Part shown: piece after piece, positions 9,107-52,831 of the stretch
Numbering within the stretch: position 1 is the stretch's first letter
How the letters are laid out: the number at the start of each line of letters is the position of its first letter
Notes under the pieces: generated by a model
What the model was told of the DNA's origin: nothing
Databases searched by the model: none
What the model saw: only the letters and a program-made list of their open reading frames with translations
Virus record (IMG/VR): IMGVR_UViG_3300045146_000225
Span: 64,001-120,792 of that record
DNA: 56,792 nt
Strand: one strand, 5' to 3'
Source: a virus
Lineage: Duplodnaviria; Heunggongvirae; Uroviricota; Caudoviricetes
Position numbers and translations under genes: made by a program

Positions 9107-10381
9107 ATGCTTCGTGGGTATCCAGAAGGTATATACGTGTCGTTCAATCTCGATTTATTCAGCGATGTCCCCCGCAACAAGATAGCCAACATGGTGGCTG
9201 CTTCGACCAAGATGAACACTACCTACACGTCATCGTATAAGCCAAACGATGTTAAAGAAGGGTTCAGGGTATGCATGAACGAGGTCGGTGGTAGCAAGAT
9301 GTCGCAGTTACAATCGCAGTTCTTCAATTACGCCGAGGCTGTAAACGTTATGTTCAAGTTGTTCGATGTCATTTATTCTTGCGGGTACACAACGTCGAAG
9401 TGCGTTGCCGAGATGAGGGTTGTCTTCGATGGCGATATAACTAAACTAACAAAGTTGAAGGATATAAACACGATACGCCTCGTTAATGCAGTCGACGAGT
9501 GCTGTGTGAACAAGAGGTATTCTAGCGAGAAACACGTGTCCGAGTACGTCGGCAACTTGAAGTACATGCGCCGCAAGATGTCTGGTGTCGTGCCTAGTGG
9601 TGTTGGTTTCCACAACGAGTATTCTTTCCCAGCCAACAGGAAAACGCCGTTATACGTGCCTGATTTAGAGTCCAACGTGTTGACTATACGGTATAATAAG
9701 AACACTAACTACCAGAAGGAGAAACGAGGTGCGAGTGCTTTCCTGTCCGGTGTTATAAACGCCACCACATCAATACTCGGCTCCAACAACAAGTACAGCG
9801 TGGCTGAGATGTCAAAGGTAAACGATGTCGCGGTGGCTCAGAAACGGGTTGCCGACCTAGCGCATTCGTTCGATTTGTTCTCTGTTAAATTCCCCAACAT
9901 AGAGATATCGGTTGATTTGAAACAAGACGAGGCTGTTGTTAAATCAAGGTACAATGAATTCAGAGGCAAGTTGTTTGACCTCGTGTACTTCTGTGGTGTT
10001 GAGGATTGCCAGGTGAATTACGATTCTGAACGGGGTGCTTTACAGGTAAAGGAGGCTCATATCAAGAACGGGATGTTCATAAGCGACATGGAGATGTTCT
10101 ACTGCGACATAAGCGGTGATATCTCTGGGTGCGTATTGGTAGAATGTAACGTGAGTAAATCGAACATTAAGGATTGCGAGTTGATGTACGGGTGTGCTAT
10201 CAACGATTCCATAATAGAGAACACTTGGTTCCACGGCGTTGGTATTACCGTGTCAAACTCGTTCATCCGTAACCCTAATGATAAGCTCGTCGAAGCTGAA
10301 TTGAGGAACACCAAGGTTGCCGGTGTTGTTAATTATGGTTCCATCGTCGATGGTGGATGTGAGGTTTTCGCAGTCGTTTAA
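9107..10381 (+). CDS. Hypothetical protein with C-terminal beta-helix-like repeats
   Basis: 424 aa; C-terminus has short I/V-x-x-C/S periodicity (CDISGDISGCVLVECNVSKSNIKDCEL). Confidence 0.7.
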   Translation: MLRGYPEGIYVSFNLDLFSDVPRNKIANMVAASTKMNTTYTSSYKPNDVKEGFRVCMNEVGGSKMSQLQSQFFNYAEAVNVMFKLFDVIYSCGYTTSKCVAEMRVVFDGDITKLTKLKDINTIRLVNAVDECCVNKRYSSEKHVSEYVGNLKYMRRKMSGVVPSGVGFHNEYSFPANRKTPLYVPDLESNVLTIRYNKNTNYQKEKRGASAFLSGVINATTSILGSNNKYSVAEMSKVNDVAVAQKRVADLAHSFDLFSVKFPNIEISVDLKQDEAVVKSRYNEFRGKLFDLVYFCGVEDCQVNYDSERGALQVKEAHIKNGMFISDMEMFYCDISGDISGCVLVECNVSKSNIKDCELMYGCAINDSIIENTWFHGVGITVSNSFIRNPNDKLVEAELRNTKVAGVVNYGSIVDGGCEVFAVV

Positions 10382-10470: not shown

Positions 10471-10731
10471 ATGCCCAAGTATAGGATGTATCTTGACCGT
10501 AAGGTCGTTTTATGGCAGCGTGATTACCTCAACATAGAGGCTGCTTCTAAGAAAGACGCTCAGAAAGAGATGGAGAAGTTCATAAAGTCTGGTTTGGTTA
10601 ACGACTCTCGGATATTTGATACCGATTTCTCCGATATAGAGAGTGTGGTTGAAGTCGGTGTTGATAACGAACCGACGGTGTTGTTGTATGATTCTGACGG
10701 TAATGAGCTTATTACCAACAGTGAAATGTGA
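10471..10731 (+). CDS. Hypothetical acidic phage protein
   Basis: 86-aa ORF downstream of a TACATTTG box at 10422. Confidence 0.65.
   Translation: MPKYRMYLDRKVVLWQRDYLNIEAASKKDAQKEMEKFIKSGLVNDSRIFDTDFSDIESVVEVGVDNEPTVLLYDSDGNELITNSEM
10479..10605 (+). repeat. Direct repeat copy 1 (127 bp)
   Basis: GTATAGGATGTATCTTGACCGTA...GGTTAACGAC, repeated at 11668-11795. Confidence 0.9.
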
Positions 10732-11667: not shown

Positions 11668-11795
11668 GTATAGGATGTATCTTGACCGTAGGGTCGTTTT
11701 TATGGTAGCGTGATTACTTCAACATAGAGGCTGCTTCTAAGAAAGACGATCAAAAAGAGATGGAGAAGTTCATAAAGTCTTGTTTGGTTAACGAC
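11668..11795 (+). repeat. Direct repeat copy 2 (128 bp, degenerate, frameshifted)
   Basis: Copy of 10479-10605 with a few substitutions and one extra T. Confidence 0.9.
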
Positions 11796-11799
11796 CAAC

Positions 11800-13175: not shown

Positions 13176-13580
13176 GTGTATTTAAAAAAACAGGTTTTTA
13201 TTTCGTAATAAACTCAAAACTACTATGTTGTTCTACTTGTTCGAATTCTTAGAAAAACACCACGTTGCTTGACCTGCGTTGAAGCAATTGCATTAAAGTA
13301 TGTACATAGAAAAGCTTTAAGCTATTTGATAACTTTAGAGGAAAATGAAGCAAAAAGCGTAAAGGCAAAAATTAAAAGTGGAGATGTAATCTGTCTTGAT
13401 AACGTAATTGTTGCTACGAGTTCTGAATTTGATGAGCTTATCGCTGATTTAAAGAAATTTCAATTATCTGAACGCCATATCAACCGCAGTGTTGTATAAC
13501 GATTGTAGATATGAAACTGTTTCATCGTACAAACCTTAACACGTGATTGCATATATTTTTTATTGATAAAACGTAAAAAT

Positions 13581-13718
13581 ATGCCAAGAGAACGACTTCC
13601 ATTAAAAAGAGAAAACAAAGGTGTTGTGATTGTGAACATCGCTGACATTTTCAGGAATGAAGACATACAGAACGAAGTTATAAGTGCGTGTAAAAAACTA
13701 AAACCACGCAAAAAGTGA
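13581..13718 (+). CDS. Small hypothetical protein (45 aa)
   Basis: Read manually: MPRERLPLKRENKGVVIVNIADIFRNEDIQNEVISACKKLKPRKK; A-rich upstream. Confidence 0.3.
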   Translation: MPRERLPLKRENKGVVIVNIADIFRNEDIQNEVISACKKLKPRKK

Positions 13719-13938
13719 TGATATTTTTAAATACATAACTCTATGGTTAAATACGAACACGACGGTTAAACAGTTTCGTGGTTGTATAATATCATAAAAA
13801 AAATTATCATTGATATTATAAAATAATCGTATATTTGTGTGTTGTTTCTTTACACCTATGGTTTTAAAAATATCGTTTTTAAAATCACTAGAAACATGTA
13901 TTGGATACGCAGTTTTAGTTAGTATTAACATATTTAAT

Positions 13939-14370
13939 CTTAGATTCAAGTAGTAAATGCAACTTTGTGAAGGGTAATAAAAATCAAATATATCCATCAA
14001 AACAAAGATGGTAAGAAATTACCGCTTTGTCTTGATGGATATATTTGCTAAATTGCCCCCTAAGTCTCCCAAAACAAGTTGCGCTTTGGATCATATAACC
14101 GAACAACAAAGGTATCAAATTTCTTGTTTAGTACAAGCAGGGAAATCTCAGACTGAGATAGCTCAGCTAAAATGAGAATATGAATGGCTTGATTCGGTAG
14201 TATTTTCCCGAGAAACCATCTTTTGAAAATATCACTGATGAGGATATTAAGCGTGTTAAGGATAAACTTAATACACGACCGCGAAAAAAAACATAAATTT
14301 TCTTCGTACATTTAATTTTTAAATTATAAATTTGCACTTACTAAAGTTGCATTTGCAGCTTGAATCCGCC
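13939..14370 (+). mobile_element. IS30-family deletion derivative, long form (432 bp)
   Basis: Ends CTTAGATTCAAGTAGTAAATGCAAC ... GTTGCATTTGCAGCTTGAATCCGCC (imperfect IRs); 14086-14169 encodes the IS30 HTH start LDHITEQQRYQISCLVQAGKSQTEIAQL, joined to the NENMNGLIR C-terminal piece. Confidence 0.85.
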
Positions 14371-14426
14371 AAGGATTAACTATCGAACAAGCGAACAAAG
14401 CTATCGAGGTGCTTTTTTACGGTTGC

Positions 14427-14480
14427 ACCTAACGGTGGGGCTAAACCGTCGTTTTAATGCGGTTTTAGCCCGTGGTAGTA
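14427..14480 (-). other. attC-like site S1 (short, GTT altered to GGT)
   Basis: ACCTAAC-GGTG-GGGCTAAACC...GGTTTTAGCCC-GT-GGTAGTA; an upstream gene remnant (GLTIEQANKAIEVLFYGCT*) stops in the TAAC. Confidence 0.6.
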
Positions 14481-14512
14481 GCCGTTTTTTATTCATCTTT
14501 TAATTGATTTAT

Positions 14513-15136
14513 ATGATAGTATTGATAACACACGAAGAAAGCCAAACAGTAATGGAAGCGTTTTTAAATGCTGGACATGACGCATATAGTTGTGATTTAT
14601 TACCACCAAGCGGAAAGTACCCAGATAGACATTTACAAATAGATTGCTTTGAAGCAATAGAACTTATTAAGCCAGACTTTTTAGGGATGCACCCTGAATG
14701 CACGAGGTTAACAGTTGCAGCGAATAAGTATTATAAGCCTGAATATGCTGAACGCTTCCCAAATATACACGAACAAAGAGCCGAAGCAGTTGAACACTTT
14801 TTGAAATGTGCGGAAGCATTAGTGAAAGTTGGTAAAGGTTATATTGAAAACCCGATAGGGATAATGAGTAAACTCTATAAAAAGCCCACTCAAATAATAC
14901 AACCTTACCAATTTGGACATAAAGAACGCAAAAGCACTTGCTTATGGATTGAAGGATTATCAAAATTACAACCTACAAATATTGTAGAACCTGACATTAT
15001 AGTACATAAAAGCGGAAGAACTGACAGTAGATTGCACTATGAAACATTTAAGCTACCAAAAGAAGAACGAAGAAAAGCCCGTTCAAAAACCTTTACCGGA
15101 ATTGCCGAAGCGATGGCGTTGCAGTGGGGTTCTTAA
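14513..15136 (+). CDS. Cassette ORF: short phage-type DNA cytosine methyltransferase-like protein
   Basis: EESQTV..GHDAYSCDL, HPECT (PC-like), YIENPIG, IIQPYQFGH, TCLWIEGL, RSKTFTGIAEAMALQWG family pattern. Confidence 0.65.
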   Translation: MIVLITHEESQTVMEAFLNAGHDAYSCDLLPPSGKYPDRHLQIDCFEAIELIKPDFLGMHPECTRLTVAANKYYKPEYAERFPNIHEQRAEAVEHFLKCAEALVKVGKGYIENPIGIMSKLYKKPTQIIQPYQFGHKERKSTCLWIEGLSKLQPTNIVEPDIIVHKSGRTDSRLHYETFKLPKEERRKARSKTFTGIAEAMALQWGS

Positions 15137-15142
15137 AATGGC

Positions 15143-15273
15143 TACTAACGGTTGCAGGTATGGTTAGTGGCGGATTTGAAACCACAGACCTATCAAGCAG
15201 TACAAAAGTAAATGAATAGTAGAAATTTAATATTAACCACAGCACCCGCCATTAACTATACATATTGTTATGG
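15143..15273 (-). other. attC-like site S2
   Basis: AAC 15147-49, stem GTATGGTTAGTGGCGG / CCGCCATTAACTATAC, GTT 15267-69. Confidence 0.85.
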
Positions 15274-15297
15274 TTTCGTGCTTTAATTCAAATAATT

Positions 15298-15591
15298 ATG
15301 ACAATTCAATTTTATTTAAACAACGAAGAAGAAACTCACATATACTCTTTGTATGATATGAGTTCAAATCCATTTAAAATCGGTGATGTTATTAATTTAT
15401 CGGTTGATGATATTCCTCCAGTAAAATTAAAAGAATATAAGCCTGAATTTGCTAAAAAACTTGTCGAAGATAATAAGCAACAAAGAGCGATGTTTCATAA
15501 TAAAAAAATTAAAATTATTCATGAATGGAAATATATCGACATTGAAAGTGATATATTTACCATTGAATATCATTGCGATTTGGTTTCTTAG
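15298..15591 (+). CDS. Cassette ORF: hypothetical protein
   Basis: Single ORF filling the space between S2 and S3. Confidence 0.7.
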   Translation: MTIQFYLNNEEETHIYSLYDMSSNPFKIGDVINLSVDDIPPVKLKEYKPEFAKKLVEDNKQQRAMFHNKKIKIIHEWKYIDIESDIFTIEYHCDLVS

Positions 15592-15597
15592 TATGAA

Positions 15598-15727
15598 TCA
15601 TAACGGTCGGGTGTAGCACAAGTAAGGGATTGCGGAGTGCGAACCTATCAAACTACACAGACATAAAAGCGGACTACAATGCTTCAAAATTGTAGCAACC
15701 CCTTATTGGTGCTACACTTTGTTAGCC
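15598..15727 (-). other. attC-like site S3
   Basis: AAC 15602-04, stem GTGTAGCACAAGTAAGGG / CCCTTATTGGTGCTACAC, GTT 15721-23. Confidence 0.85.
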
Positions 15728-15768
15728 ACCGTATTTTATTGAATGTTATACTTTTAAATTATAAAAAT

Positions 15769-16077
15769 ATGTACACAAAAACTGAAAACAAATGGAGATA
15801 TTCGCAGGAATATCAAGAAGTAACTACCAGCAAAGATGGTATAATTGAAGGTTCAAAATCAATATGTGCAATTTCAACTTTTGACAAATCAAAAGAAGAA
15901 ATAGAATCAAATGGAAAACTTATTTCTGCTGCTCCTGAAATGTTTGAAGCATTAAAAAGAGTTGAAGCATATTTAGTAGCAAATGAAGATGTTTTAGCAC
16001 CATTTCCAACTCGAAGTGAGTTAGATAATATTCGTGCGGCAATGTTTAAAACGGGGCTGTACCAATATGGTGGCTAA
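15769..16077 (+). CDS. Cassette ORF: phage hypothetical protein with NxxLIxAAPE motif
   Basis: SNGKLISAAPEMFEAL; stop TAA lies inside the TAAC of S4. Confidence 0.7.
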   Translation: MYTKTENKWRYSQEYQEVTTSKDGIIEGSKSICAISTFDKSKEEIESNGKLISAAPEMFEALKRVEAYLVANEDVLAPFPTRSELDNIRAAMFKTGLYQYGG

Positions 16078-16156
16078 CTTACTTATATGCGTACCAAAGG
16101 TACGTATATACTACAGACGTTTGTTGTATATGCGTACCTTTTGTTGCCTAATATAG
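16072..16156 (-). other. attC-like site S4, interrupted by IS30 miniature element
   Basis: GGCTAAC then a 70-bp segment nearly identical to 19573-19642; the matching GTT appears at 16464 after the element. Confidence 0.55.
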
Positions 16157-16457
16157 CTTAGATTCAAGTAGTAAATGCAACTTTGGGAATGGTAATAAAA
16201 ATCAAATGTTTTTCAAAACAAAGGGGTAATTTCTTACCATTCATGGGAACGTGGAACAAATGAGAATATGAATGGCTTGATTCGGCAGTATTTTCCCAAG
16301 AAATCATCTTTTGGAAATATTACTGATGAGGATATTAAGCGTGTTAAGGATAAACTTAATACGCGACCGCGAAAAAAAACATAAATTTTCTTTGCATATT
16401 GAATTTTTAATTATAAATTTGGACTTGCTAAAGTTGCATTTGTAGCTTGAATCCGCC
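16157..16457 (+). mobile_element. IS30-derived miniature element (301 bp)
   Basis: Same ends as 13939-14370; interior encodes SYHSWERGTNENMNGLIRQYFPK (IS30 transposase C-terminus). Confidence 0.88.
16391..16421 (+). promoter_or_regulatory. Outward-facing Bacteroidota consensus promoter in the element's right end
   Basis: TTTG (16391-94) - 19 nt - TAAATTTG (16414-21); other copies read TTCG-N20-TAAATTTG (-7 boxes at 14327, 19899, 23813). Confidence 0.6.
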
Positions 16458-16485
16458 TTTGTTGTTAGCAAATCGTTTTAATGTT

Positions 16486-16616
16486 TGCTAACGGTTTGGC
16501 GGTATGAAACGGCAGGGATTAAGTGTGAAACTCTATCAGCCGAAACGAATGATGAATAGTAGCACAACGGTTAATTACGGCACATCAGCCCTGCTGTTTT
16601 ATACCGCTTGTTAGGG
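16486..16616 (-). other. attC-like site S5
   Basis: AAC 16490-92, 19-bp stem GCGGTATGAAACGGCAGGG / CCCTGCTGTTTTATACCGC, GTT 16610-12. Confidence 0.88.
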
Positions 16617-16637
16617 GCTGGTATTTATACAAATTTT

Positions 16638-16904
16638 ATGAATTTTTCTCAAGCATTAGAAAGCCTAAAATTAGGTAGTAAAGTTCAGCGTGGAGGCTGG
16701 AATGGTAAAGGAATGTATATTTTCCTTATCGGTACAGATTTGTCAAAAGTCGGCACAGGTGGATGGACTTACACAAATGGAGTAAACGATAATTATGAAT
16801 TACTTCCATTTATTGCAATGAAAACAGCCGATGAAAAAGTTGTTCCGTGGCTGGCTTCTCAAACAGATATTTTAGCAGAGGATTGGTGTATTCTTTTAGG
16901 CTAA
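16638..16904 (+). CDS. Cassette ORF: DUF2829 / Tad2-like protein (candidate nucleotide-signal sponge)
   Basis: FSQALESLKLGSKVQRGGWNGKGMYIFL ... PWLASQTDILAEDW, the DUF2829 signature. Confidence 0.8.
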   Translation: MNFSQALESLKLGSKVQRGGWNGKGMYIFLIGTDLSKVGTGGWTYTNGVNDNYELLPFIAMKTADEKVVPWLASQTDILAEDWCILLG

Positions 16905-16937
16905 ATTATCAAATGGGGTATGCCGTCTTATGCTTGT

Positions 16938-17068
16938 CCCTAACGAATGGCGGTATGGGCAGTTGGGGATTAGAAACCACTACACTATCCGCAAGTATAA
17001 ACTTAATAAAATGCAGAAATGATAAATGAACAGATAATACCCCAATTGCCTATGCCCGCTTGTTATGC
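16938..17068 (-). other. attC-like site S6
   Basis: AAC 16942-44, stem GCGGTATGGGCAGTTGGGG / CCCCAATTGCCTATGCCCGC, GTT 17062-64. Confidence 0.85.
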
Positions 17069-17825
17069 ACAGGTTATTTTAGGCGATTGCTTGGAGTTGT
17101 ATAAAAATATTGAACCTAAAAGCATAGACTTAATTTTAACCGATTTGCCTTATGGTACGACTGCGTGTAAATGGGACACTATAATTCCATTTGATAAACT
17201 TTGGGAAATGGTAAATTACTTACTAAAACCAAATGGAACATTTATTACAACAGCTTCACAACCTTTTACAAGTGCTTTAGTAATGAGTAACCCGAAAATG
17301 TTTAAGTATGAGTGGATTTGGGATAAAGTGCAACCTACTGGGGCATTTAATGCAAGCAAACAACCAATGAAGTTACATGAAAATATATTAGTGTTTTATA
17401 ATAACCAGCCTATTTATAATAGGCAAATGACAGATAGACCGCTAAAGGATTTAAGACCAAACCAAATAAAAACTACAAAAGAATTGGATAGGGTTGAATA
17501 TGAATATTTAGGAGGACAAAAGAAACAGTATTCATCAAATTGGGATTACACAAAAGTAAATCCGAAAACAATTATTCAGTTTCAAAAATCTGCCGAAAGA
17601 TTTAAAGAATTTAAACACCCCACCCAAAAACCAGTAGCATTATTTGAGTACCTACTTAAAACATACAGTAATGAAGGAATGACAATATTTGACCCTTGTA
17701 TGGGTTCTGGAACAACTGGAGTAGCATGTAAAAATCTAAACCGAAACTTCATCGGAATAGAAAAAGACGAGAACTATTTCAAAATAGCAGAGCAGCGAAT
17801 AAATGCACGGACGCTGTTTTCTTAA
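17019..17825 (+). CDS. Cassette ORF: beta-class N4C/N6A DNA methyltransferase
   Basis: GDCLE, LILTDLPYG (motif IV), HPTQKPVAL, FDPCMGSGTTG (motif I); start codon lies inside S6. Confidence 0.9.
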   Translation: MINEQIIPQLPMPACYAQVILGDCLELYKNIEPKSIDLILTDLPYGTTACKWDTIIPFDKLWEMVNYLLKPNGTFITTASQPFTSALVMSNPKMFKYEWIWDKVQPTGAFNASKQPMKLHENILVFYNNQPIYNRQMTDRPLKDLRPNQIKTTKELDRVEYEYLGGQKKQYSSNWDYTKVNPKTIIQFQKSAERFKEFKHPTQKPVALFEYLLKTYSNEGMTIFDPCMGSGTTGVACKNLNRNFIGIEKDENYFKIAEQRINARTLFS

Positions 17826-17830
17826 CTTGT

Positions 17831-17924
17831 GCATAACGGGCGAGTGTAGCCATCAGTAGGCTAACGCACCGACCTGTTAATTTAGTAATAACTTTCCGCC
17901 TATTGTGGCTACACTTTGTTAGCA
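17831..17924 (-). other. attC-like site S7 (short class)
   Basis: AAC 17835-37, stem AGTGTAGCCATCAGTAGGC / GCCTATTGTGGCTACACT, GTT 17918-20. Confidence 0.85.
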
Positions 17925-17948
17925 ACTTGGCGGGTAAAATAGAACGAA

Positions 17949-18161
17949 ATGACAATAGAAAACATTAAAAAAGAGATGCTAAAATACCGTGATTTTTACG
18001 GTGGCAATTTGCTTGAAGTAGGCGAAATCGAAAATGCAACTACAAAAGAAGAGCTTGAAAAAATTATTGAAAACCATAGAAGCCACATGGAAGCAATGTT
18101 AAGTGACGCTAATGGGCATCTCGATAATTTGAAAAGGAAATGCAAGTTAGGGTACTGTTAG
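17949..18161 (+). CDS. Cassette ORF: hypothetical protein
   Basis: 70-aa ORF between S7 and S8. Confidence 0.7.
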   Translation: MTIENIKKEMLKYRDFYGGNLLEVGEIENATTKEELEKIIENHRSHMEAMLSDANGHLDNLKRKCKLGYC

Positions 18162-18170
18162 TAGCCTTGT

Positions 18171-18265
18171 TGCTAACGTTCGAGGCTATGAGTAGTGCAG
18201 CCTTTCAAACCGTATCAATTTAGCACTACATTAAGTGGCTGCATTACTTATAGCCTTTGTTAGCC
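18171..18265 (-). other. attC-like site S8 (short class)
   Basis: AAC 18175-77, 20-bp stem AGGCTATGAGTAGTGCAGCC / GGCTGCATTACTTATAGCCT, GTT 18259-61. Confidence 0.88.
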
Positions 18266-18301
18266 ACATGTTTTTATTAATCATTTTAAAATTAAATAGA
18301 T

Positions 18302-18646
18302 ATGAGTACAATTTCAATTAATGGTAATACTTATTCAGGCAATAGTATTGTAGTGATAAATGGAAAAGTTATTGTAAATGGCAATGATGTTACACCTGAT
18401 AGTAAGGAAATAAACATTAAAGTTGATGGGAATATTAACAAATTAGAAGTTGATGCTTGTAATAAAGTAGAAATTACTGGAGATGTTTCAAGTATTAAAA
18501 CACAAAGCGGAGATGTTGAAATTACGGGAAATGTTACTGGTTCAATTCAAACAATGTCAGGCGATGTTGATTGTGGAACAGTCGAGGGTTCAATTTCAAC
18601 AATGAGTGGTGATATTAAGCACAAGCGTTCTCAAACTTGTGGCTAA
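18302..18646 (+). CDS. Cassette ORF: small beta-solenoid-like protein (T-x-S-G-D repeats)
   Basis: TQSGDV, TMSGDV, TMSGDI repeats; stop TAA inside the TAAC of S9. Confidence 0.7.
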   Translation: MSTISINGNTYSGNSIVVINGKVIVNGNDVTPDSKEINIKVDGNINKLEVDACNKVEITGDVSSIKTQSGDVEITGNVTGSIQTMSGDVDCGTVEGSISTMSGDIKHKRSQTCG

Positions 18647-18770
18647 CGTTACGTATATGGTAAGTTGGGGGATAGAATGCACAAACCTATCAACTTGCAA
18701 GAACTAAATAAATTGTGCTAATATAACAAGTTGGAACGACACCCCCAATTTGCTATATACATTGTTAGGG
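18641..18770 (-). other. attC-like site S9
   Basis: AAC 18645-47, stem GTATATGGTAAGTTGGGG / CCCCAATTTGCTATATAC, GTT 18764-66. Confidence 0.85.
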
Positions 18771-18789
18771 TGCGTTTATTTTTATCAAA

Positions 18790-19095
18790 ATGGAAAATTA
18801 CACACGAGTAAGAGTAGAATTAGATGTTATGGCTCAAAAATTAATTAGTCAATACATGATTAATAATGAACGAATTGAAAAAGATATTGAAGCTGGGATA
18901 AACCGAGCTTTTGAAACAATTGACTTAGAAAAAGAAGTTGAACGCTCCGTTAAAAATGCTATTGAAAAAGCAATAAAAGATTCCTCGGAATGGGGTAAAA
19001 TTCGAGATGCTGTAAAAAAGAAAACCGATGAAATTGTCGAAAGTTATATTGAAAAATCAATTTCTAAATTTAGACAGGATTTTCAAACGGAGTAA
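18790..19095 (+). CDS. Cassette ORF: hypothetical helical protein
   Basis: 101-aa ORF between S9 and S10. Confidence 0.7.
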   Translation: MENYTRVRVELDVMAQKLISQYMINNERIEKDIEAGINRAFETIDLEKEVERSVKNAIEKAIKDSSEWGKIRDAVKKKTDEIVESYIEKSISKFRQDFQTE

Positions 19096-19109
19096 AGTGT
19101 TTAAATGCA

Positions 19110-19240
19110 CCCTAACGGTGTCGCAGCTATGCAATGTGCGGGTGTACGAAGTGCTTTCGTATCCCACGTTACAGAACTTAGCTACGAGCTGAAAAGATTG
19201 CGTTTGCAGCACCCCGCATAGTGTATAGGTGCTGTTATAA
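19110..19240 (-). other. attC-like site S10
   Basis: AAC 19114-16, stem GCAGCTATGCAATGTGCGGG / CCCGCATAGTGTATAGGTGC, GTT 19234-36. Confidence 0.8.
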
Positions 19241-19272
19241 ACAGGCTTTTATTAACTTTCTAAATATAAATT

Positions 19273-19560
19273 ATGAAAAAAGAAAAACACACAGAAGGAA
19301 ATTGGAAATATAGACCAGATATAGTAGGCAATAGTTTTTATATTGAAACGGTTGACCAATCTCACGATAGAACATTTATTGGGGAAATAGGTGGAGGACT
19401 TCAATCTAAAATAGAAATTGAAGCTAATGCAAAACTTGTATCTACCGCACCCGAACTTTTAGAAGCATGTCAACGAGCTTTAGAAGTTTTTGAATCTGAA
19501 AATATAACAGGACAAGCAAGATTGTTGCTGGCAGTCGCTATCAAAAAGGCGGTTTTTTAG
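19273..19560 (+). CDS. Cassette ORF: phage hypothetical protein with NxxLxxxAPE motif
   Basis: HTEGNW...EANAKLVSTAPELLEAC; same family pattern as 15769..16077. Confidence 0.7.
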   Translation: MKKEKHTEGNWKYRPDIVGNSFYIETVDQSHDRTFIGEIGGGLQSKIEIEANAKLVSTAPELLEACQRALEVFESENITGQARLLLAVAIKKAVF

Positions 19561-19565
19561 CTTGT

Positions 19566-19642
19566 TTATAACTTACGTATATGCGTACCAAAGGTACGTA
19601 TATACTACAGACGTTTGTTGTATATGCGTACCTTTTGTTGCC
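19566..19642 (-). other. attC-like site S11, truncated by IS30 miniature element
   Basis: TTATAAC then the 70-bp segment shared with S4. Confidence 0.55.
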
Positions 19643-19942
19643 CTTAGATACAAGCAGTAAATGCAACTTTGGGAAGGGTAATAAAAATCAAATGTTTTCA
19701 AAACAAAGGGGTAATTTCTTACCCTTCATGGGAACGTGGAACAAATGAGAATATGAATGGCTTGATTCGGCAGTATTTTCCCGAGAAACCATCTTTTGAA
19801 AATATCACTGATGAGGATATTAAGCGTGTTAAGGATAAACTTAATACGCGACCGCGAAAAAAACATAAATTTTCTTCGCACATTGAATTTTTAAATTATA
19901 AATTTGCACTTGCTAAAGTTGCATTTGCAGCTTGAGTCCGCC
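19643..19942 (+). mobile_element. IS30-derived miniature element (300 bp)
   Basis: Near-identical to 16157-16457; tracked ORF 19669..19935 is its transposase remnant. Confidence 0.88.
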
Positions 19943-20064
19943 TTGGCTAATCTTGTAACCACTTTGCGCGAAGAAGATAAACTTTGCATCATTAACACAG
20001 GCGATGAAGAACACCGAGAACCACAAATTATTTGTTCAATGGGATTAACTAATGTTCAATAAGT

Positions 20065-23000
20065 ATGGCTAAGTTAAATATAGAAAATACACGAAAAGCA
20101 TTACAGTCATTCGACTTTAAAACCTTGTTTATTGAGGAATTGGGATGGAGTAACCCTTCTTCTTCGAAAGTAATTAATGAAACGATAAAGGATATTGTTA
20201 TAATTCGTAAACCCATTGCCGAATTGAGCGGTGCTGTGGTTTTTGAGATTACAACACCAACTGGTATTGTTCCCGAACCAAAAGAACGGGCAGCGATTGC
20301 AAAAGAAATACAAAAACAGCATTTTGAACATGTTTTGATTTTTGTTGACAGCGACCGTAAACAAAGCATTTGGTACTGGCTGAAACATCAGGACAAAAAA
20401 CTGTTGAGTAGGGAGCATTTTTATTTCCGACACCAACCAGGCGATGTGTTTATTGCCAAAATAGCCTCTTTGGTTGTTGACATAAGTGAATTCGACCGTG
20501 AAGGGAATATTGCTATTGCCGAAGTAGCAAGCCGTATAAAATCGGCTTTGGATATCGAACGGGTGGTTAAAAAATTCTTCCGCGAATACCAACAGGAATA
20601 TATTGTTTTTCTCGACCTTATCGAAGGCATTGACAATGAAGCCGACCGCCGCTGGTATGCATCGGTTATCCTTAACAGGCTCATGTTTATATATTTTCTA
20701 CAAAAGAAATTGTTTGTTGACAATGCTAACGCTAACTACCTTAACAGCAAACTTGAATTCTCGAAAAAAGAACTGGGTAAAAACAAATTTTACGAGGTTT
20801 TCTTAAGTAAATTGTTTTTCGAAGGTTTTGCCAAAAACGAAAGCCAGCGAAGCCCCGAAACCAATAAGCTGATAGGTAAGATTAAATACCTTAATGGTGG
20901 CTTGTTCATGAAACATAAAATTGAGATAAAGTACGATGGTAAAATAAAAATTGCTGACGAAGCATTTGTAACCATATTCGATTTATTCGACCGTTACAGC
21001 TGGACATTGAACGATACGCCCGGTGGTGCCGACAACGAAATGAACCCCGATGTACTTGGTTATATTTTTGAAAAATACATTAACCAAAAAGCATTTGGGG
21101 CATATTATACACGAACAGAGATTACCGAATACCTCTGCGAACAAACGGTTTATAAACTTATTCTTGATGCTATAAATGAACCCGAAATCGACCCTGAATT
21201 ATTTAAAAAAACAGGCTTGGATAAATTTGGAAACCCCAAACGTTACGATTCTATAGCTGAACTTTTACTGAACCTCGATGCTGCCAATTGCAAAAAGTTG
21301 GTTATGGGCGATGATGCTATTTTGCCAAACCTTAGTTTGCTCGACCCTGCCTGTGGTTCGGGTGCATTTTTGGTGGCAGCTATGAAAACGCTTATTAACG
21401 TATATGCTGTCGTGCTGGGCAAAATTGATTTTCTGGGCGATAAAAAGCTAACCGAATGGAAACAACAAATTGAAACCGACCACCCGAGCATTAACTATTA
21501 CATTAAAAAACAAATTATTACCAACAACCTGTATGGGGTTGACCTGATGGAGGAAGCTACCGAAATAGCCAAACTACGCCTGTTCCTTGCATTAGTGGCA
21601 AGTGCCGACACGGTTGACCAGTTGGAACCCCTGCCCAATATTGTTTTTAATATAATGAATGGCAACTCGCTTATAGGATTGATGCGGGTTGATGCCGGAA
21701 GATTTGAAAAACATCAGGGACAAAACCTCTTCCGTAAAAGTTATGCCGACTTGTTACGTGAAAAAAACATTGCTATTCAGTTGTACAAAAACCCGAAAGG
21801 TATTGACGATATACAACTGTTGAAAAACAATATTGAACGCCACCGCGAGGAAGTCATACCCATTCTCGACGATATGCTCATGAACGAGTTTGGAAACCTT
21901 GGTATTAAATATGAACAGATAACCTGGGACGAGAATAAAAACAAGGAAGGCAAGCCCGTTAAACGCAGCCTGAACATTAACGACATAAAAGCTCTTGAAC
22001 CTTTCCATTGGGGTTACGAGTTTTCTGAAATTTTCAGGAAAAAGGACGGGTTTGATGCTATTATTACAAATCCACCTTGGGAGGTGTTTAAACCAAACTC
22101 AAAAGAGTTTTTTCTTGCCTACTCAAATATTGTTTCGAGAAAAAGAATGAGCATTAAAGATTTTGAGCAGGAACAGGAAAAAATTTTACAAGACCAGGAA
22201 ATAAAAGAAGCATGGATAAATTATTTAAGCAGCTATCCCCATGTGAGTTCATATTTCAGAAGTGCAAAGCAATTCGAAAATCAAATATCAATAGTTAATG
22301 GTAAAAAAGCTGGTTCGGATATAAACCTTTACAAACTTTTCACAGAGCAATGTTTTAATTTGTTAAGGAAAGGTGGTTATAGTGGAATTGTTATACCAAG
22401 TGGAATTTATACTGATTTAGGTACAAAGCAATTACGAAAATTATTATTTGAACAAAATAAAGTAACAGGCTTGTTCTGTTTTGAAAACCGTAAAGAAATT
22501 TTTGAGGGTGTTCACCGTAGCTTTAAATTTGTTGTTTTAAGTTTTGAGAAAGGAGGGAACACTAAATCATTCCCTGCTGCTTTTATGCGCCACGATGTGG
22601 ATGAATTAACTAGCTTTCCAAAATATGGAGCTTCGGAGATAAGTCTTAATTTTATCACAAAACAAAGTCCTGAAAGTCTTTCAGTTACAGAAGTGAAAAA
22701 TGATATTGATTTTAGTATTTTACAAAAAACCATATCATTCCCCTTTGTAAGTGACAAAATATATGGCACATGGAACATTGAGTTGGGTAATGAATTTCAC
22801 ATGACAAACGATAGTAAAATATTTTTAACAAAACCAGATAAGAACGCATTCGCATTATATGAGGGTAAAATGATATGGCAATTTTATCATAGATATAGCG
22901 AACCAAGATATTGGATTAATGAAAATACGGGAAGGAAGTCAATTTTAGGTAAGCAAAAAGATGATGGTCAGATTTTAAATTATCAAAATTATAGACTTGC

Positions 23001-23544
23001 ATTTAGGGATATAACTTCACCAACAAATGAGCGGTCGATGATTAATACAATTGTTCCCAAAAATATCTTTGCCGGTAATACTCTTGTTTTATCAAAAAAC
23101 AATATTTCATCAGCAGATTTGTTATGTATTACTTCATTTTTAAATGGATATACAAATGATTATTTAATTCGTCAAAAAATTACTTCACACTGTAATTTAT
23201 TTTATGTCTATCAACTTCCCGTACCTCGCCTCAAACCCACCGACAAATGGTTCAAGCCTATTATTGAACGTGCAGCCAAACTTATTTGCACCACCGAAGA
23301 ATATGCCGATTTATGGGAAGAAACCATGCAAACCAAATGGAGCGAAAAAGTTGCAGCAACCAATGAATATGAACGTAACAAACTACGGGCAGAACTTGAT
23401 GGCATTATTGCCCATATTTACGGGCTTACCGAAGAAGAATTTACTTACATTTTAAGTACATTTCCTATTGTACCACAACCACAGAAAGTGGCAGTACAGA
23501 ATGCTTATAGGGATGTGATAAATGGGTTTATTAAACCTGAATAA
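20065..23544 (+). CDS. Large N6-adenine DNA methyltransferase (Eco57I/type IIG-like or DISARM DrmMI-like)
   Basis: GAYYT, LDPACGSGAFL (motif I), NLYGVD, IITNPPW (motif IV), C-terminal TRD-like region; no nuclease motif recognised. Confidence 0.85.
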   Translation: MAKLNIENTRKALQSFDFKTLFIEELGWSNPSSSKVINETIKDIVIIRKPIAELSGAVVFEITTPTGIVPEPKERAAIAKEIQKQHFEHVLIFVDSDRKQSIWYWLKHQDKKLLSREHFYFRHQPGDVFIAKIASLVVDISEFDREGNIAIAEVASRIKSALDIERVVKKFFREYQQEYIVFLDLIEGIDNEADRRWYASVILNRLMFIYFLQKKLFVDNANANYLNSKLEFSKKELGKNKFYEVFLSKLFFEGFAKNESQRSPETNKLIGKIKYLNGGLFMKHKIEIKYDGKIKIADEAFVTIFDLFDRYSWTLNDTPGGADNEMNPDVLGYIFEKYINQKAFGAYYTRTEITEYLCEQTVYKLILDAINEPEIDPELFKKTGLDKFGNPKRYDSIAELLLNLDAANCKKLVMGDDAILPNLSLLDPACGSGAFLVAAMKTLINVYAVVLGKIDFLGDKKLTEWKQQIETDHPSINYYIKKQIITNNLYGVDLMEEATEIAKLRLFLALVASADTVDQLEPLPNIVFNIMNGNSLIGLMRVDAGRFEKHQGQNLFRKSYADLLREKNIAIQLYKNPKGIDDIQLLKNNIERHREEVIPILDDMLMNEFGNLGIKYEQITWDENKNKEGKPVKRSLNINDIKALEPFHWGYEFSEIFRKKDGFDAIITNPPWEVFKPNSKEFFLAYSNIVSRKRMSIKDFEQEQEKILQDQEIKEAWINYLSSYPHVSSYFRSAKQFENQISIVNGKKAGSDINLYKLFTEQCFNLLRKGGYSGIVIPSGIYTDLGTKQLRKLLFEQNKVTGLFCFENRKEIFEGVHRSFKFVVLSFEKGGNTKSFPAAFMRHDVDELTSFPKYGASEISLNFITKQSPESLSVTEVKNDIDFSILQKTISFPFVSDKIYGTWNIELGNEFHMTNDSKIFLTKPDKNAFALYEGKMIWQFYHRYSEPRYWINENTGRKSILGKQKDDGQILNYQNYRLAFRDITSPTNERSMINTIVPKNIFAGNTLVLSKNNISSADLLCITSFLNGYTNDYLIRQKITSHCNLFYVYQLPVPRLKPTDKWFKPIIERAAKLICTTEEYADLWEETMQTKWSEKVAATNEYERNKLRAELDGIIAHIYGLTEEEFTYILSTFPIVPQPQKVAVQNAYRDVINGFIKPE

Positions 23545-23555
23545 TGGAAAGATTG

Positions 23556-23856
23556 CTTAGATTCAAGTAGTAAATGCAACTTTGGGAATGGTAATAAAAA
23601 TCAAATATTTTTCAAAACAAAGGGGTAATTTCTTACCCTTCATGGGAACGTGGAACAAATGAGAATATGAATGGCTTGATTCGGCAGTATTTTCCCGAGA
23701 AATCATCTTTTGAAAATATTACTGATGAGGATATTAAGCGTGTTCAGGATAAACTTAATACGCGACCACGAAAAAAACATAAATTTTCTTCGTACATTGA
23801 ATTTTTAAATTATAAATTTGCACTTACTAAAGTTGCATTTGCAGCTTGAATCCGCC
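23556..23856 (+). mobile_element. IS30-derived miniature element (301 bp)
   Basis: Near-identical to the other copies; ends 6 nt before the leuS ATG. Confidence 0.88.
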
Positions 23857-35042: not shown

Positions 35043-35105
35043 GATGGTAAACCGCCGTTAAGGTTCCCGGCATTTAAAACAGTAATTAGTTAAATATTTT
35101 TATAT

Positions 35106-35339
35106 ATGGGTGAAGTTTTTAACCACGTTAACAGGAGTGAGCGCAGGAAGTACAGCGACAGGAAGTCGATGAAGGGTCTATCTTTGAGCAAGCGTGCCGA
35201 GATAACAAGCAAGAACATAGAACAGGGGTTGAAACGGCACATGTTGTTCTGCGAGGAGGTGAAGCTGATTCAAGATGAATCGCGATCATCAAAGATGGAT
35301 GGTGGGTCGCTGGCGGATGCAGGTGGCGATGTGATATAG
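35106..35339 (+). CDS. Small hypothetical protein
   Basis: 77-aa ORF, backbone codon style. Confidence 0.55.
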   Translation: MGEVFNHVNRSERRKYSDRKSMKGLSLSKRAEITSKNIEQGLKRHMLFCEEVKLIQDESRSSKMDGGSLADAGGDVI

Positions 35340-35364
35340 TGGTTTAATTAAATATAGTAATATC

Positions 35365-36756
35365 ATGGTTGATTTAAATTTCAAGTTAAAATCTATGGTG
35401 TTGACCATCGGTCCATCTCATTGTGGTAAAACGTATTTCTGCAAGAATGTGTTGCTACCTTCATTGAAGAGTGACCCTTCGCTCAACGTCCAGTACATTT
35501 CATCCGACGATACACGAAGGGAACTCCTAGGTGTTGACTTGTCAAATATGGATAAGAAGATGATGTACGTGTCTGAACCGGCTTTCAGGTTCATGGAATA
35601 CAAGGTCGCATCTATGATGAAGTTCCCTGTAATGGCTGACTTCATCGTTGTTGATGCGACATTGTTGGATGAGAAGACACGTGATGCTTTCATCAGCGTG
35701 GCGCGTGATAACTGCTACAACGTGTACGCCATAAAGTTCGATTACGATAGCAGGGATGAGTACATGTCCTTCGTCCCGGATTCAAAAGAGATTGTTCGTG
35801 TCGTTAATAACCACGTGACTAAGTTCAAGAAGGAACTGAGGTCTATATCTAGGATAAGCAAGCACGGTGTCCTGTACAGGATTAAATCGCGTGACTTGTC
35901 CGGTGTTAGTGTTTCTATCGACCCGTGTGATGTTAAGAAGCGAGACGAGACCACGTTGCCAGATGATGATGTCGTCGTTATATCAGACATACACGGGTGC
36001 TACGATTCATTGGTAGAGTTGTTGTACAAGTGCGGGTTCGGTATATCGGGTGGTAAGATAGTTGATAATTCAGGTTACAAGAGGACGCTCGTCATAAATG
36101 GTGATTTCATAGACAAGGGGGATAAGGTACTTGATGTCGTTGGGTTGTTGTACGACAACATCGGTAACGACATCGTCAAGGTCATCAAGGGGAACCACGA
36201 GAATTTCGTGTACAAGTACCTTAAAGGTGAAATAGACGAGTCTGGTGATATGCTTGATTACTTCGATTCTATAAACATGTACAAGGATGCAGGTTGTGGT
36301 GAAATCGGTAAGTTCTTCTCCGTTATAGAATCGTGTGTTGATTTCTGTCACAATAACTTCGTGTACGTTACGCATGCACCTTGTCGGAACAAGCATGTTG
36401 GTAAGTTCGACATCAAGTCGATACGGGGCATGAGGTCGTTCTCTTACAATATAGATGGTAGTGTTGAGGATAAGGACAAGCACCTAGAGGGTATGCTGTC
36501 GTTCATCGTTGATGAATCTGTTTGCAGGCAGCCGTACCATTGCTTCGGGCATATAGCCGTGAGCAACCCACGTGCTTTGGGGAACAAGGTGTTCCTCGAT
36601 GGTGGTGCAGTGTACGGCGGTAAGCTTGTGGCCGCCACGTTCACGCCTGATATGCGTGTCAAGTTCGCCAGCGTGCGCTGTGATGTTAAGCGAGAAGGTA
36701 GGTTGTACGATTTGTTCGGGGTTGATAACTGCATGTTAAATAATATACATTATTAG
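35365..36756 (+). CDS. pnkP: Pnkp N-terminal part: polynucleotide kinase + metallophosphatase; truncated by IS607 insertion
   Basis: P-loop GPSHCGKT, ISSDDTR, VVDAT; SDIHG, GDFIDKG, GNHE, FGH, DGGAVYGG; last residues (NCMLNNIHY) come from AT-rich element sequence. Confidence 0.85.
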   Translation: MVDLNFKLKSMVLTIGPSHCGKTYFCKNVLLPSLKSDPSLNVQYISSDDTRRELLGVDLSNMDKKMMYVSEPAFRFMEYKVASMMKFPVMADFIVVDATLLDEKTRDAFISVARDNCYNVYAIKFDYDSRDEYMSFVPDSKEIVRVVNNHVTKFKKELRSISRISKHGVLYRIKSRDLSGVSVSIDPCDVKKRDETTLPDDDVVVISDIHGCYDSLVELLYKCGFGISGGKIVDNSGYKRTLVINGDFIDKGDKVLDVVGLLYDNIGNDIVKVIKGNHENFVYKYLKGEIDESGDMLDYFDSINMYKDAGCGEIGKFFSVIESCVDFCHNNFVYVTHAPCRNKHVGKFDIKSIRGMRSFSYNIDGSVEDKDKHLEGMLSFIVDESVCRQPYHCFGHIAVSNPRALGNKVFLDGGAVYGGKLVAATFTPDMRVKFASVRCDVKREGRLYDLFGVDNCMLNNIHY

Positions 36757-52804: not shown

Positions 52805-52831
52805 TATAAATAACAAAAACATCACGGTTGT

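Follow-up and report, generated by a model that had tools for sequence, protein, structure and literature searches.

PeSLs, reportedly described by Arbiol et al. in 2010, are promoter-early stem-loop cassettes of T4-type phages. They are promoter-plus-terminator modules, thought to recombine by homology, and are not known to have a recombinase dedicated to them, an AAC/GTT core or cassette ends that are self-complementary. With the phage locus analyzed here they share small accessory genes of large phages that lie between repeated stem-loops and are shuffled among phages. In integrons of the Treponema denticola type, intI is flipped and located upstream of canonical ORF-attC cassettes. Recombinase and cassette genes point in the same direction in these integrons, as in the phage system; in the latter, however, it is the genes that are flipped, recombinase and sites keep the canonical geometry, and the recombinase follows the array.

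Classical integrons, especially the sedentary chromosomal ones with near-uniform attC families, share with the phage system an Xer/IntI-branch tyrosine recombinase that has an N-terminal SAM-like domain, a polar array whose cassettes each hold a single gene and have self-closing ends, imperfect hairpins with conserved AAC/GTT cores and variable, covarying stems, a crossover at the AAC triplet (inferred here), a folded strand that is the recombinase sense strand, a fixed insertion box beside the recombinase gene and the existence of recombinase-less satellite arrays. The phage system differs in that its recombinase, shorter by about 50 aa, has no IntI-specific insert to read the extrahelical bases, its genes lie on the folded strand, each 3' of its hairpin and pointing in the same direction as the recombinase, the core-side spacer is asymmetric (5-6/2-3 nt) and placed on the AAC arm, an invariant G·T pair replaces the bulged G/T bases, and both carrier and cargo are of phage type. 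In this regard, Qi et al. (2023) reported phages with IntegronFinder-type attC clusters only (PMC9892861). Common to their CALINs and our locus are integrase-less attC-like clusters in virulent phages, among them one that infects a flavobacterial host, and DNA methyltransferase cassettes, read there as counter-restriction cargo. Those CALINs were, however, treated as bacterial integron components recognized by IntI1, without a phage-encoded recombinase, an adjacent insertion box, inverted polarity or arrays as long (PMC9892861). In the literature we found no paper that describes the phage system analyzed here.

The DNA analyzed here (the window, 56,792 nt) covers positions 64,001-120,792 of the 120,792-bp IMG/VR contig IMGVR_UViG_3300045146_000225. 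This contig is a large phage from lake water, as read from the replication and head genes that flank the array on both sides (DNA polymerase, DnaB-type helicase, SbcC, major head protein, prohead protease). Eleven TAAC...GTTA hairpin sites on the + strand, interspersed with nine small ORFs on the same strand, were observed at 14427-19642 (Table 1), confirming the initial annotation, which had listed eleven AAC...GTT sites between small ORFs and no integrase in view. The latter point extends to the whole 120,792-bp contig, where searches with PF00589 and TIGR02249 gave no tyrosine recombinase match and no attI-like box was found, and therefore activity on the window array is only inferred. About 55% of the phage genome is unassembled. 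We consider it probable that the array is a recombinase-less satellite of a phage-borne, integron-like gene-capture system; in its organization it operates as a bacterial integron would under another enzyme, because the hairpins match those beside an Xer/IntI-like recombinase in related phages.

Table 1. Features of the cassette array and its borders (window positions).
Feature	Position	Strand	Evidence and remarks
IS30-derived miniature element, copy 1	13939..14374	+	longest copy; internally deleted transposase remnant; left array edge
s1, short degenerate hairpin	14427..14484	+	5' box CACCTAAC; 3' box mutated to GTGGTAG; sequence, fold
Cassette gene 1, DNA methyltransferase-like, 207 aa	14513..15136	+	phrog_757, E 2.8e-55
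s2, hairpin, 125 nt	15146..15270	+	model R1, 115.8 bits
Cassette gene 2, orphan, 97 aa	15298..15591	+	ORF list; without Pfam or PHROG match
s3, hairpin, 124 nt	15601..15724	+	model R1, 107.5 bits
Cassette gene 3, phrog_1273 protein, 102 aa	15769..16077	+	TAA at the AAC box serves as stop codon
s4, short hairpin, TAAC...GTTGCC	16075..16148	+	repeat D5, fold; 99% identical to s11
IS30-derived miniature element, copy 2	16157..16461	+	immediately 3' of s4
ORF-less mini-unit, GTTAGCAAA...TTTGCTAAC	16464..16492	+	sequence
s5, hairpin, 125 nt	16489..16613	+	model R1, 105.8 bits
Cassette gene 4, Tad2-like (DUF2829), 88 aa	16638..16904	+	PF11195, 93.8 bits, E 9e-27
s6, hairpin, 125 nt	16941..17065	+	model R1, 97.3 bits; 3' arm has next gene's probable ATG (17049)
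Cassette gene 5, N6/N4 DNA methyltransferase	17049..17825	+	PF01555, E 3.6e-33; phrog_67, E 9e-73
s7, hairpin, 88 nt	17834..17921	+	model R1, 38.8 bits, E 7e-8
Cassette gene 6, orphan, 70 aa	17949..18161	+	ORF list; without Pfam or PHROG match
s8, hairpin, 89 nt	18174..18262	+	model R1, 55.6 bits
Cassette gene 7, phrog_3163 protein, 114 aa	18302..18646	+	stop codon inside AAC box
s9, hairpin, 124 nt	18644..18767	+	model R1, 95.2 bits
Cassette gene 8, orphan, 101 aa	18790..19095	+	ORF list; without Pfam or PHROG match
s10, hairpin, 125 nt	19113..19237	+	model R1, 77.8 bits
Cassette gene 9, phrog_1273 protein, 95 aa	19273..19560	+	PHROG match
s11, short hairpin, copy of s4	19569..19642	+	repeat D5
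IS30-derived miniature element, copy 3	19643..19945	+	right array edge

Three IS30-derived miniature elements and one ORF-less mini-unit had been absent from the initial annotation. The former are a three-copy repeat family (D1-D4) with terminal inverted repeats that flanks and interrupts the array, and copy 3 encodes the C terminus of a transposase of the IS30 family (NF033563, E 1.1e-17). The products of genes 3 and 9 are paralogues (36% identical). On either side of the array, metagenome contigs end at the IS30 copy and, as a consequence, no short contig bridges array and backbone, which leaves room for an assembly chimera in which host or other DNA was joined to the phage at the IS30 repeats. 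Such an artifact is extremely improbable, given that the depths of array and backbone co-vary in four metagenome runs from different studies and years (about 193/66/30/4 versus 193/61/33/2.5), that further sites of the same family lie outside the array in the same phage contig (genome positions 34842-35770 and 52701-52824), and that the architecture is also present in cultured, complete phage genomes.

Regarding the cassette ends, the sequence after each GTT had been said to pair with that before the next AAC and not with its own left flank. The six flank pairs quoted are all correct, and over 16 nt the post-GTT sequence of one site matches the reverse complement of the pre-AAC sequence of the next at a mean of 12.2 positions, compared to 7.2 when a site's own flanks are used and 7.5 across 102 non-cognate pairs, of which the best reaches 11 and none 13. 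At s1, TAGTAGCC 3' of the box pairs with GGCTACTA preceding the next AAC. This pairing rule is symmetric and is silent on which strand or box recombines. The inner stems, as had also been proposed, diverge in sequence and still pair: in 19 family members (6 window sites and 13 from other contigs) we observed 96.6% of stem cells paired versus 68.9% in shuffles, a covariation score of 0.68 versus 0.14, and compensatory changes in 16/19 stem pairs. The custom covariance model suggested as a check matched eight array sites, each on the + strand, and missed the remaining three of the eleven; elsewhere in the window it gave no convincing match, with a single weak one at 14942-15010 (E 0.72).

The 13-15-nt inverted ends on each segment could alternatively define small transposable units, each with its own ends (GTTAGCCAC...GTGGCTAAC), the hairpins being targets or left-overs, while the IS30-derived elements on both flanks could point to an inert IS30 composite. 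Both notions seem very unlikely. Except for GTTA/TAAC, the inverted ends vary between units and therefore no single transposase could read them all, whereas it is the hairpins that are conserved and covary; in addition, the ends of the IS30 elements show no evident target duplication, and array variants differ within the array and not at the IS30 copies.

A strand bias was observed directly. The + strand gives the better fold at 10/11 sites (with a tie at s1), the summed fold energies being -181.8 versus -153.9 kcal/mol for the - strand and the G:T pairs 34 versus 12; one G·T pair is invariant (19/19 sequences) and a second is present in 13/19. The extra unpaired bases (5-6 nt vs 2-3 nt) are located on the AAC arm of the better-folding strand, an arrangement that in classical attC sites marks the non-recombined top strand (PMC5027507), and thus the geometry is not simply that of a mirrored attC. 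Site and downstream leader are conserved as one segment across contigs, and four model-supported sites of a cultured Flavobacterium phage each include the start annotated for the gene that follows. Cassette polarity is inverted with respect to classical integrons: the coding strand folds better, crossovers map to the 5' AAC box and the hairpin heads its gene. The G·U-type bias is equally compatible with a role in RNA, because genes and hairpins lie on one strand.

With a pattern built from the window sites, arrays were recovered from about a dozen IMG/VR contigs, two of which are complete genomes (265,845 bp and 76,236 bp). Each of these two encodes exactly one tyrosine recombinase, immediately 3' of a same-strand array, and this 267-aa enzyme is Xer/IntI-like and lacks the IntI-specific insert. 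Its relatives, 62-100% identical, occur at about 29 viral loci, and wherever the locus extends 1.5 kb or more upstream, same-strand sites were observed 5' of the recombinase. A simple scan around these loci counted about 100 sites upstream versus 3 downstream, and the model gave 131 hits at E<=0.001; five loci with distant recombinases had no upstream sites. A conserved YAAC-TATNATATATA box lies ~45 nt upstream of every recombinase gene. As for the window sites, s2 with its leader is 82.5% identical to the recombinase-proximal site of one complete genome (G002), s3 with its leader is 84-87% identical in three contigs (L006, L012, L021), the homology beginning at TAAC, and s5 is 82-86% identical to sites of five others (L003, L008, L010, L015, L020). 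An integrase acting in trans, as postulated in the initial annotation, is supported by these related viral contigs, where same-family sites immediately precede a tyrosine recombinase, whereas its candidate enzyme, an IntI with the I2 insertion, has to give way to the shorter recombinase without insert. The insert is considered essential for integron recombination (PMC8138268), and its absence from the 267-aa enzyme counts against integron-like activity.

Cultured relatives of the recombinase, the Freya and Ingeline enzymes, have been read as lysogeny integrases (PMC8776804). The enzyme might then be an unrelated lysogeny or dimer-resolution recombinase, and the hairpins RNA-level elements (terminators, processing sites or stabilizing stem-loops), with the cassettes shuffled in PeSL-like fashion only by homology or microhomology between these repeats, which would suit the folds on the transcribed strand, the conserved G·U-type pairs and the co-orientation of all genes; the hairpins have no Rfam match, yet a new RNA is not excluded. 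We find this explanation unlikely, since the sites lie nearly all upstream of the recombinase and lead into a conserved AAC-bearing box, breakpoints recur in a 3-6-nt AAC box and not along the 125-nt repeats, unit ends are complementary over 13-15 nt, as a closed circle junction predicts, and genomes of 265-362 kb with the 267-aa enzyme are unlikely lysogens.

Cassette variants were observed in lake metagenomes, for which the data are per-run contigs and not raw reads, the array contigs breaking at repeats. In three runs (X4, X7 and X9) the same phage lacks 16813-18615. The contig joint 16072->18172 lies inside a shared GCTAAC and places s8 directly after gene 3 in the variant populations, and another breakpoint coincides with the C of the AAC box in s11, from where an s5-like hairpin replaces s11 onward. 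Three near-identical contigs (L030, L034, L035) carry the same cassettes in differing orders. Beside the integrase of the cultured Polaribacter phage Freya_1 the sequence reads ...GTTTACAAC|ACCCC..., and in Freya_10 about 4.9 kb of small ORFs are inserted between the two points of Freya_1, with the end ...GCTAAC|ACCCC. The comparison of cassette order in related phages proposed earlier hence revealed whole-cassette loss and reordering, with joints within AAC boxes. The claim of site-specific recombination finds support in these joints; that units existed as circles is an inference, no circular cassettes having been seen in the per-run contigs.

The array could also be a CALIN (attC cluster without integrase) from a host integron, whose IntI would recombine the non-coding strand at the GTT box. 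TAAC/GTTA boxes, hairpins and complementary cassette ends are attC-like, and on the - strand the extra unpaired bases face the AAC triplet, as they do in classical bottom strands. CALINs with N6_N4 methylase cargo have been published for virulent phages, a Polaribacter phage among them, and IntI1 recombines some of these CALINs (PMC9892861). The joints, however, are seen at + strand AAC boxes and not at GTT boxes, the fold-energy and G:T bias is opposite to that of classical sites, in viral contigs this family of sites is linked to a recombinase other than IntI, the cargo has its matches among phage families, and a weak scan of species-representative bacterial genomes turned up no close recombinase relative. 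A host-derived CALIN is thus quite improbable.

In the phage-borne gene-capture system that we favor, the mobile unit would extend from the C of one YTAAC box through the TAA of the next and would consist of an imperfect hairpin of 60-125 nt, then a GTTA box, a short leader and a single small gene, and finally a tail with complementarity to the bases 3' of its own GTTA. In related phages, such units are stacked on one strand and lead into the YAAC-TATNATATATA box beside the recombinase. The 267-aa enzyme is inferred to exchange strands at the AAC box of a hairpin folded from the gene-coding strand, which, as classical integrons also show, is the recombinase sense strand; a single-stranded substrate and A|C cleavage are likewise inferences. 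Strand exchange would then excise units as circles, intermediates that remain hypothetical, and insert them at the recombinase-side box or at other hairpins. For the window array the enzyme, whose identity is only inferred, has to act in trans, and could be supplied by the unassembled ~55% of the genome or by a co-infecting phage.

The cargo, which had been likened to phage accessory genes, finds its matches among phage protein families (PHROGs); it contains two orphan DNA methyltransferases, small phage proteins and a Tad2-like protein recognized via PF11195. The core of the initial annotation, namely integron-like cassettes, site-specific recombination, phage-type cargo and an enzyme in trans, is supported. 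Gene 1 shows 81-83% nucleotide identity to gp005 of cultured Flavobacterium phages, which are 38-kb siphoviruses, and is flanked by sites both in these and in the window phage. The homology of the gene-1 segment with another contig (L018) ends at both boxes and, therefore, neither flanking hairpin moved along with it. The product of gene 4 is a candidate anti-Thoeris sponge. Although their function is inferred, these cassettes suggest a shuffled store of counter-defence and accessory genes.

In the window, eleven YTAAC-hairpin-GTTA sites (s1-s11, in order) alternate with small ORFs between positions 14427 and 19642, as the initial annotation had described; the ORFs number nine (genes 1-9), and sites and ORFs are all on the + strand. 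The array is flanked on both sides by phage genes, including those for a DNA polymerase, a DnaB-type helicase, SbcC, a major head protein and a prohead protease, and the contig, a 120,792-bp IMG/VR virus record of which the window is bases 64001-120792, has a CheckV completeness of 45%. The earlier claim that the sequence after each GTT pairs with the sequence before the next AAC also holds, and the ends of the cassettes pair beyond chance: the 16 nt 3' of GTT and the reverse complement of the 16 nt 5' of the next AAC agree at a mean of 12.2 positions, against 7.2 for the two flanks of one and the same site and 7.5 (maximum 11) for 102 non-cognate pairs. This pairing rule is symmetric, however, and therefore gives no information on which box is cut.

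The inner stems, which differ in sequence and were proposed to keep pairing, indeed covary. In an alignment of 19 sequences, six of them from the window and 13 from elsewhere, pairing in the 19-bp stem reaches 96.6% (68.9% in shuffles), with compensatory changes at 16 stem pairs and a covariation score of 0.68 (0.14 in shuffles, 0.07-0.20 in slid controls). A covariance model built from this alignment recovers eight window sites, all on the + strand, and its sole further match within the window is weak (E 0.72, 14942-15010); s1, s4 and s11 are shorter derivatives of the family. The YTAAC and GTTAR cores are invariant, but only 4-5 nt of the 7-nt attC consensus (RYYYAAC / GTTRRRY) are retained. 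When 13500-20200 was compared with Rfam (E<=1), only chance matches of the microRNA type came up. The conserved TTTGTTA of the 3' site ends was also considered as a Bacteroidota -7 promoter box and dropped, as it keeps no consistent spacing to any -33 TTTG. Further sites of the contig and the features neighbouring the array are listed in the table, among them three IS30-family copies and an ORF-less mini-unit that the initial annotation had left out.

Features in and around the array (window positions, except where G000, the whole contig, is indicated)
Feature	Position	Strand	Remarks
Second mini-array	G000 34842-35770	+	upstream of the window; three sites, two small ORFs; start GTTATGGTTTCG as in the s2 unit
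Lone site	G000 52701-52824	+	upstream of the window; start codon of the next ORF inside the loop
ORF-less mini-unit	16464-16492		
IS30-family element, internally deleted, copies 1-3	13939-14374, 16157-16461, 19643-19945		NF033563, E 1.1e-17
IS30-family element, fourth copy	~23554-23830		flanked by the genes for the restriction enzyme and leucyl-tRNA synthetase
52-aa ORF fragment	19904-20062		abuts IS30 copy 3
Single-chain Eco57I/MmeI-type restriction-modification enzyme	20065-23544		intact, 1159 aa; directly right of the array
Leucyl-tRNA synthetase gene	23863-26643		full length; ~51% G+C within a ~35% G+C region
Direct duplication, ~130 nt of a small-ORF start	10479-10606 and 11668-11796		

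Regarding the polarity of the units, four lines agree: where the joints fall, which strand folds better, which strand is the sense strand for the recombinase found in other viral contigs, and the joint conservation of hairpin and leader. We therefore define the mobile unit as beginning at the C of an AAC box, with the hairpin ahead of the gene, and as ending with the TAA of the following box. The joints that were observed fall within AAC boxes of the + (coding) strand. This strand folds better at ten of the eleven sites, with a tie at s1 (summed energies of -181.8 vs -153.9 kcal/mol), and carries 34 G:T pairs against 12, one G·T pair being invariant in 19/19 sequences; in classical attC sites, a better fold and G:T richness mark the recombined bottom strand (PMC5027507). 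The better-folding strand is, moreover, the sense strand of the recombinase gene, which lies on its 3' side as in classical integrons. Finally, the hairpin and the leader downstream of it are conserved together between contigs, with homology beginning at TAAC. The probable start codon of the methylase gene (17049) falls within s6, and in a cultured Flavobacterium phage four model-supported sites enclose the annotated start of the next gene. The four lines thus indicate a geometry that is canonical relative to the enzyme, with the genes inverted, whereas a classical cassette consists of a gene followed by its own attC, with crossover between G and TT on the coding strand. The initial reading of integron-like recombination is supported, with a correction to the cassette polarity, and circular intermediates remain inferred.

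One feature of the sites is still unexplained. The additional unpaired bases (5-6 vs 2-3 nt) are located on the AAC arm of the better-folding + strand. In classical attC sites, by contrast, the strand that recombines is the bottom strand, which folds better and is rich in G:T pairs, and its extrahelical bases lie on the arm opposite the AAC; unpaired bases on the AAC arm correspond to the top-strand arrangement (PMC5027507). The sites of this family consequently clash with a simple mirror image of attC, although a different site grammar would be unsurprising with a recombinase that has no insert.

Profile searches of the whole 120,792-bp contig with PF00589 and the integron integrase model TIGR02249 gave no match, in agreement with the earlier remark that no integrase was in view. 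Elsewhere, the site family is tied to a recombinase. A DNA pattern derived from the window sites matched 20 viral contigs, about a dozen of which bear arrays of the same 124-127-nt family, and the two complete genomes among them (265,845 bp, with terminal repeats, and 76,236 bp) both encode a single tyrosine recombinase of 267-268 aa immediately after an array and on the same strand. A protein search with this recombinase yielded 29 loci, with relatives 62-100% identical on contigs of up to 362 kb, and wherever a locus extends 1.5 kb or more upstream of the gene, same-strand sites precede it. A simple scan of these loci counted about 100 sites upstream vs 3 downstream, and a model from window and foreign sites matched 131 times at E<=0.001; among five loci with only distantly related recombinases, none has sites. 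The hairpin family of the window is the one that abuts the recombinases, on the same strand as the genes, and s2, taken together with its leader, shares 82.5% identity with the site nearest the recombinase in the 76-kb genome. In addition, each recombinase ATG is preceded, at a distance of about 45 nt, by a conserved YAAC-TATNATATATA box, so that an attI-type insertion site beside the recombinase gene is a property of the family loci and not of the window, where this box was sought without success, as it was in the whole contig.

The 76-kb genome also has sites away from its recombinase, which indicates that detached arrays coexist with the enzyme, and the recombinase occurs together with 13 sites on a 180-kb contig that encodes a major head protein with 52% identity to that of the window. 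We read the array in the window as belonging to a phage integron-like system, with no recombinase on this contig, itself 45% complete. Detached arrays of this kind would be supplied with recombinase in trans; activity on the window array, circular intermediates and a single-stranded substrate are all inferred. A search of viral contigs with the 424-aa backbone protein (9107-10381) found no relatives, precluding a synteny comparison by that route, and no synteny was found between this contig and the array-flanking genes of recombinase loci L033, L040, L041, L043 and L055, which gave one distant methyltransferase match (L055), one distant match near the L033 recombinase and none for the other three. 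In a scan for the recombinase, two N-terminal peptide patterns retrieved only 23-33% identical proteins from bacterial species-representative genomes, too insensitive a test to show that bacteria lack it.

The type of enzyme departs from what had been expected, since an IntI with the I2 insertion was what the initial annotation had proposed to look for. No such enzyme is present on the contig, and the family-linked recombinase contains domains PF00589 and PF13495 but scores below the cut-offs of its best NCBIfam models (XerA, 177 bits, cut-off 220; integron integrase TIGR02249, 157 bits, cut-off 265), the latter match being split in two. It has 37 residues where VchIntIA (structure 2a3v) has 85, which points to the absence of the IntI-specific insert, and its nearest solved relative is a Pyrococcus XerA-type protein. 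The additional domain of classical integron integrases, the I2 helix insert, is thus lacking. These data bear on the possibility that the array is a classical CALIN derived from a host. CALINs were reportedly defined by Cury and colleagues in 2016 as clusters of attC sites lacking an integrase, and the corresponding criteria (at least two attC sites, no integrase nearby) are fulfilled by eleven sites with no recombinase within 120.8 kb, a classification that presupposes that the sites count as attC-type. The location of the joints, the bias between strands and a partner enzyme other than IntI all contradict a host-derived CALIN.

Natural variation provides evidence for movement of the cassettes. 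The phage is found in lake-water metagenomes, of which run X1 agrees with the window. In runs X4, X7 and X9, from other studies and years, the backbone is identical at 98-99% and the depth falls to about zero across 16813-18615. Each of these runs has one contig in which 16072 is connected to 18172 by a shared GCTAAC, which is the AAC box for s4 as well as for s8. From the end of s8 these contigs then return directly to s4, and after gene 9 they change to an s5-like hairpin precisely at the C of the AAC box. An artefact of assembly is unlikely: the depths of array and backbone go together in all four runs, evidence against a chimeric assembly. A further variant, seen in X4, X7 and X9 and at about 4% in X1 (16064-16078, 18164-18268), has the s8 hairpin followed by GTTAGCCACA fused directly to GTGGCTAAC, that is, cassette 7 minus its gene, between gene 3 and s4. 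This suggests that inverted cassette ends can collapse, as in the ORF-less unit of the reference.

Other phages vary in the same manner. Three near-identical contigs (L030, L034, L035) carry the same cassettes in different orders, and a 38-kb cultured Flavobacterium siphovirus shows the same architecture with a site family of its own. In the cultured Polaribacter phage Freya_1, GTTTACAAC is joined to ACCCC beside the integrase, and a stretch of about 4.9 kb of small ORFs separates the same two points in Freya_10 and ends in GCTAAC followed by ACCCC. The ten cultured isolates of this phage, Freya_1 to Freya_10 (MT732463-MT732472; L070/L071/L074), range from 43,978 to 48,920 bp, a difference residing mostly in those small ORFs, which are stacked at an AAC box that precedes the annotated integrase gene by 50 nt. 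A search of 181 units from all loci for one cassette beside different hairpins found only wholly identical duplicate contigs. In this phage, its relatives and cultured phages, then, the presence, absence and order of cassettes vary with breakpoints at the AAC box; that the units moving in this way are of a transposon type is unlikely. It could also be argued that the hairpins act purely at the RNA level and that the cassettes are shuffled by homology, which would fit the strand bias, but does not explain why sites accumulate on one side of the recombinase, why an AAC-bearing box lies next to it or why breakpoints are limited to the core.

The proposal that the cargo is of a phage accessory type is sustained in part by PHROG and Pfam matches. 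Gene 1 encodes a methyltransferase-like protein (phrog_757) and is shared with the 38-kb Flavobacterium siphovirus at 81-83% nucleotide identity; gene 4 encodes a Tad2-like DUF2829 protein (PF11195, 93.8 bits), gene 5 an N6/N4 methyltransferase (PF01555) and gene 7 a phrog_3163 member, and genes 3 and 9 are phrog_1273 paralogues with 36% identity. Three cassette genes are orphans, and a role in counter-defence or as accessory genes is inferred from family names only.

Other mobile or imported DNA is found nearby. At least four copies of the IS30-family element, with inverted ends of about 27 bp, are present in the window; copies 2 and 3 each lie directly 3' of an identical short hairpin, s4/s11 (GTTGCC end), which the elements may target or travel with, and the fourth copy shows a 3-fold depth excess in metagenomes. 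The leucyl-tRNA synthetase gene looks recently imported into the phage. The second copy of the direct duplication stops at GGTTAACGAC; a short foreign stretch rich in G+C starts there, and this junction is possibly the left border of a mosaic island.

Altogether, we favor, with some reservation, a model in which large phages of Bacteroidota run an integron analogue of their own, based on a minimal, I2-less Xer/IntI-like recombinase that would act on coding-strand hairpins at an AAC core. Hairpin-headed cassettes, with methylases and a Tad2-type sponge among the cargo, would be captured at a fixed box beside the recombinase gene and traded between unrelated phages, and detached arrays, like the one in the window, would rely on an enzyme supplied in trans.

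In the prevailing view, integrons are cellular devices and need the special insert of IntI. A full-text literature search found no account of a phage-encoded integron analogue. CALINs of the IntegronFinder type, with methylase cassettes, have been described in virulent phages (Qi et al., 2023; PMC9892861), and the paper on the Freya and Ingeline phages takes the integrases as signs of lysogeny and leaves the cassettes unmentioned (PMC8776804). The system is directly testable, given a small enzyme, sites defined to the nucleotide and cultured flavobacterial phages that carry the module, among which the Freya isolates would be a ready experimental system; public lake metagenomes also contain natural variants whose joints are exact. 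If the phage analogue is confirmed, cassette capture through folded hairpins evolved, or persists, without the IntI insert, and there would be a mechanism for the way in which large phages shuffle their small accessory genes, a phenomenon that is well known but has lacked an explanation. The arrays would likewise offer a ready-sorted catalogue of candidate counter-defence genes, and would be the viral equivalent of the stores of defence genes that bacterial integrons hold.
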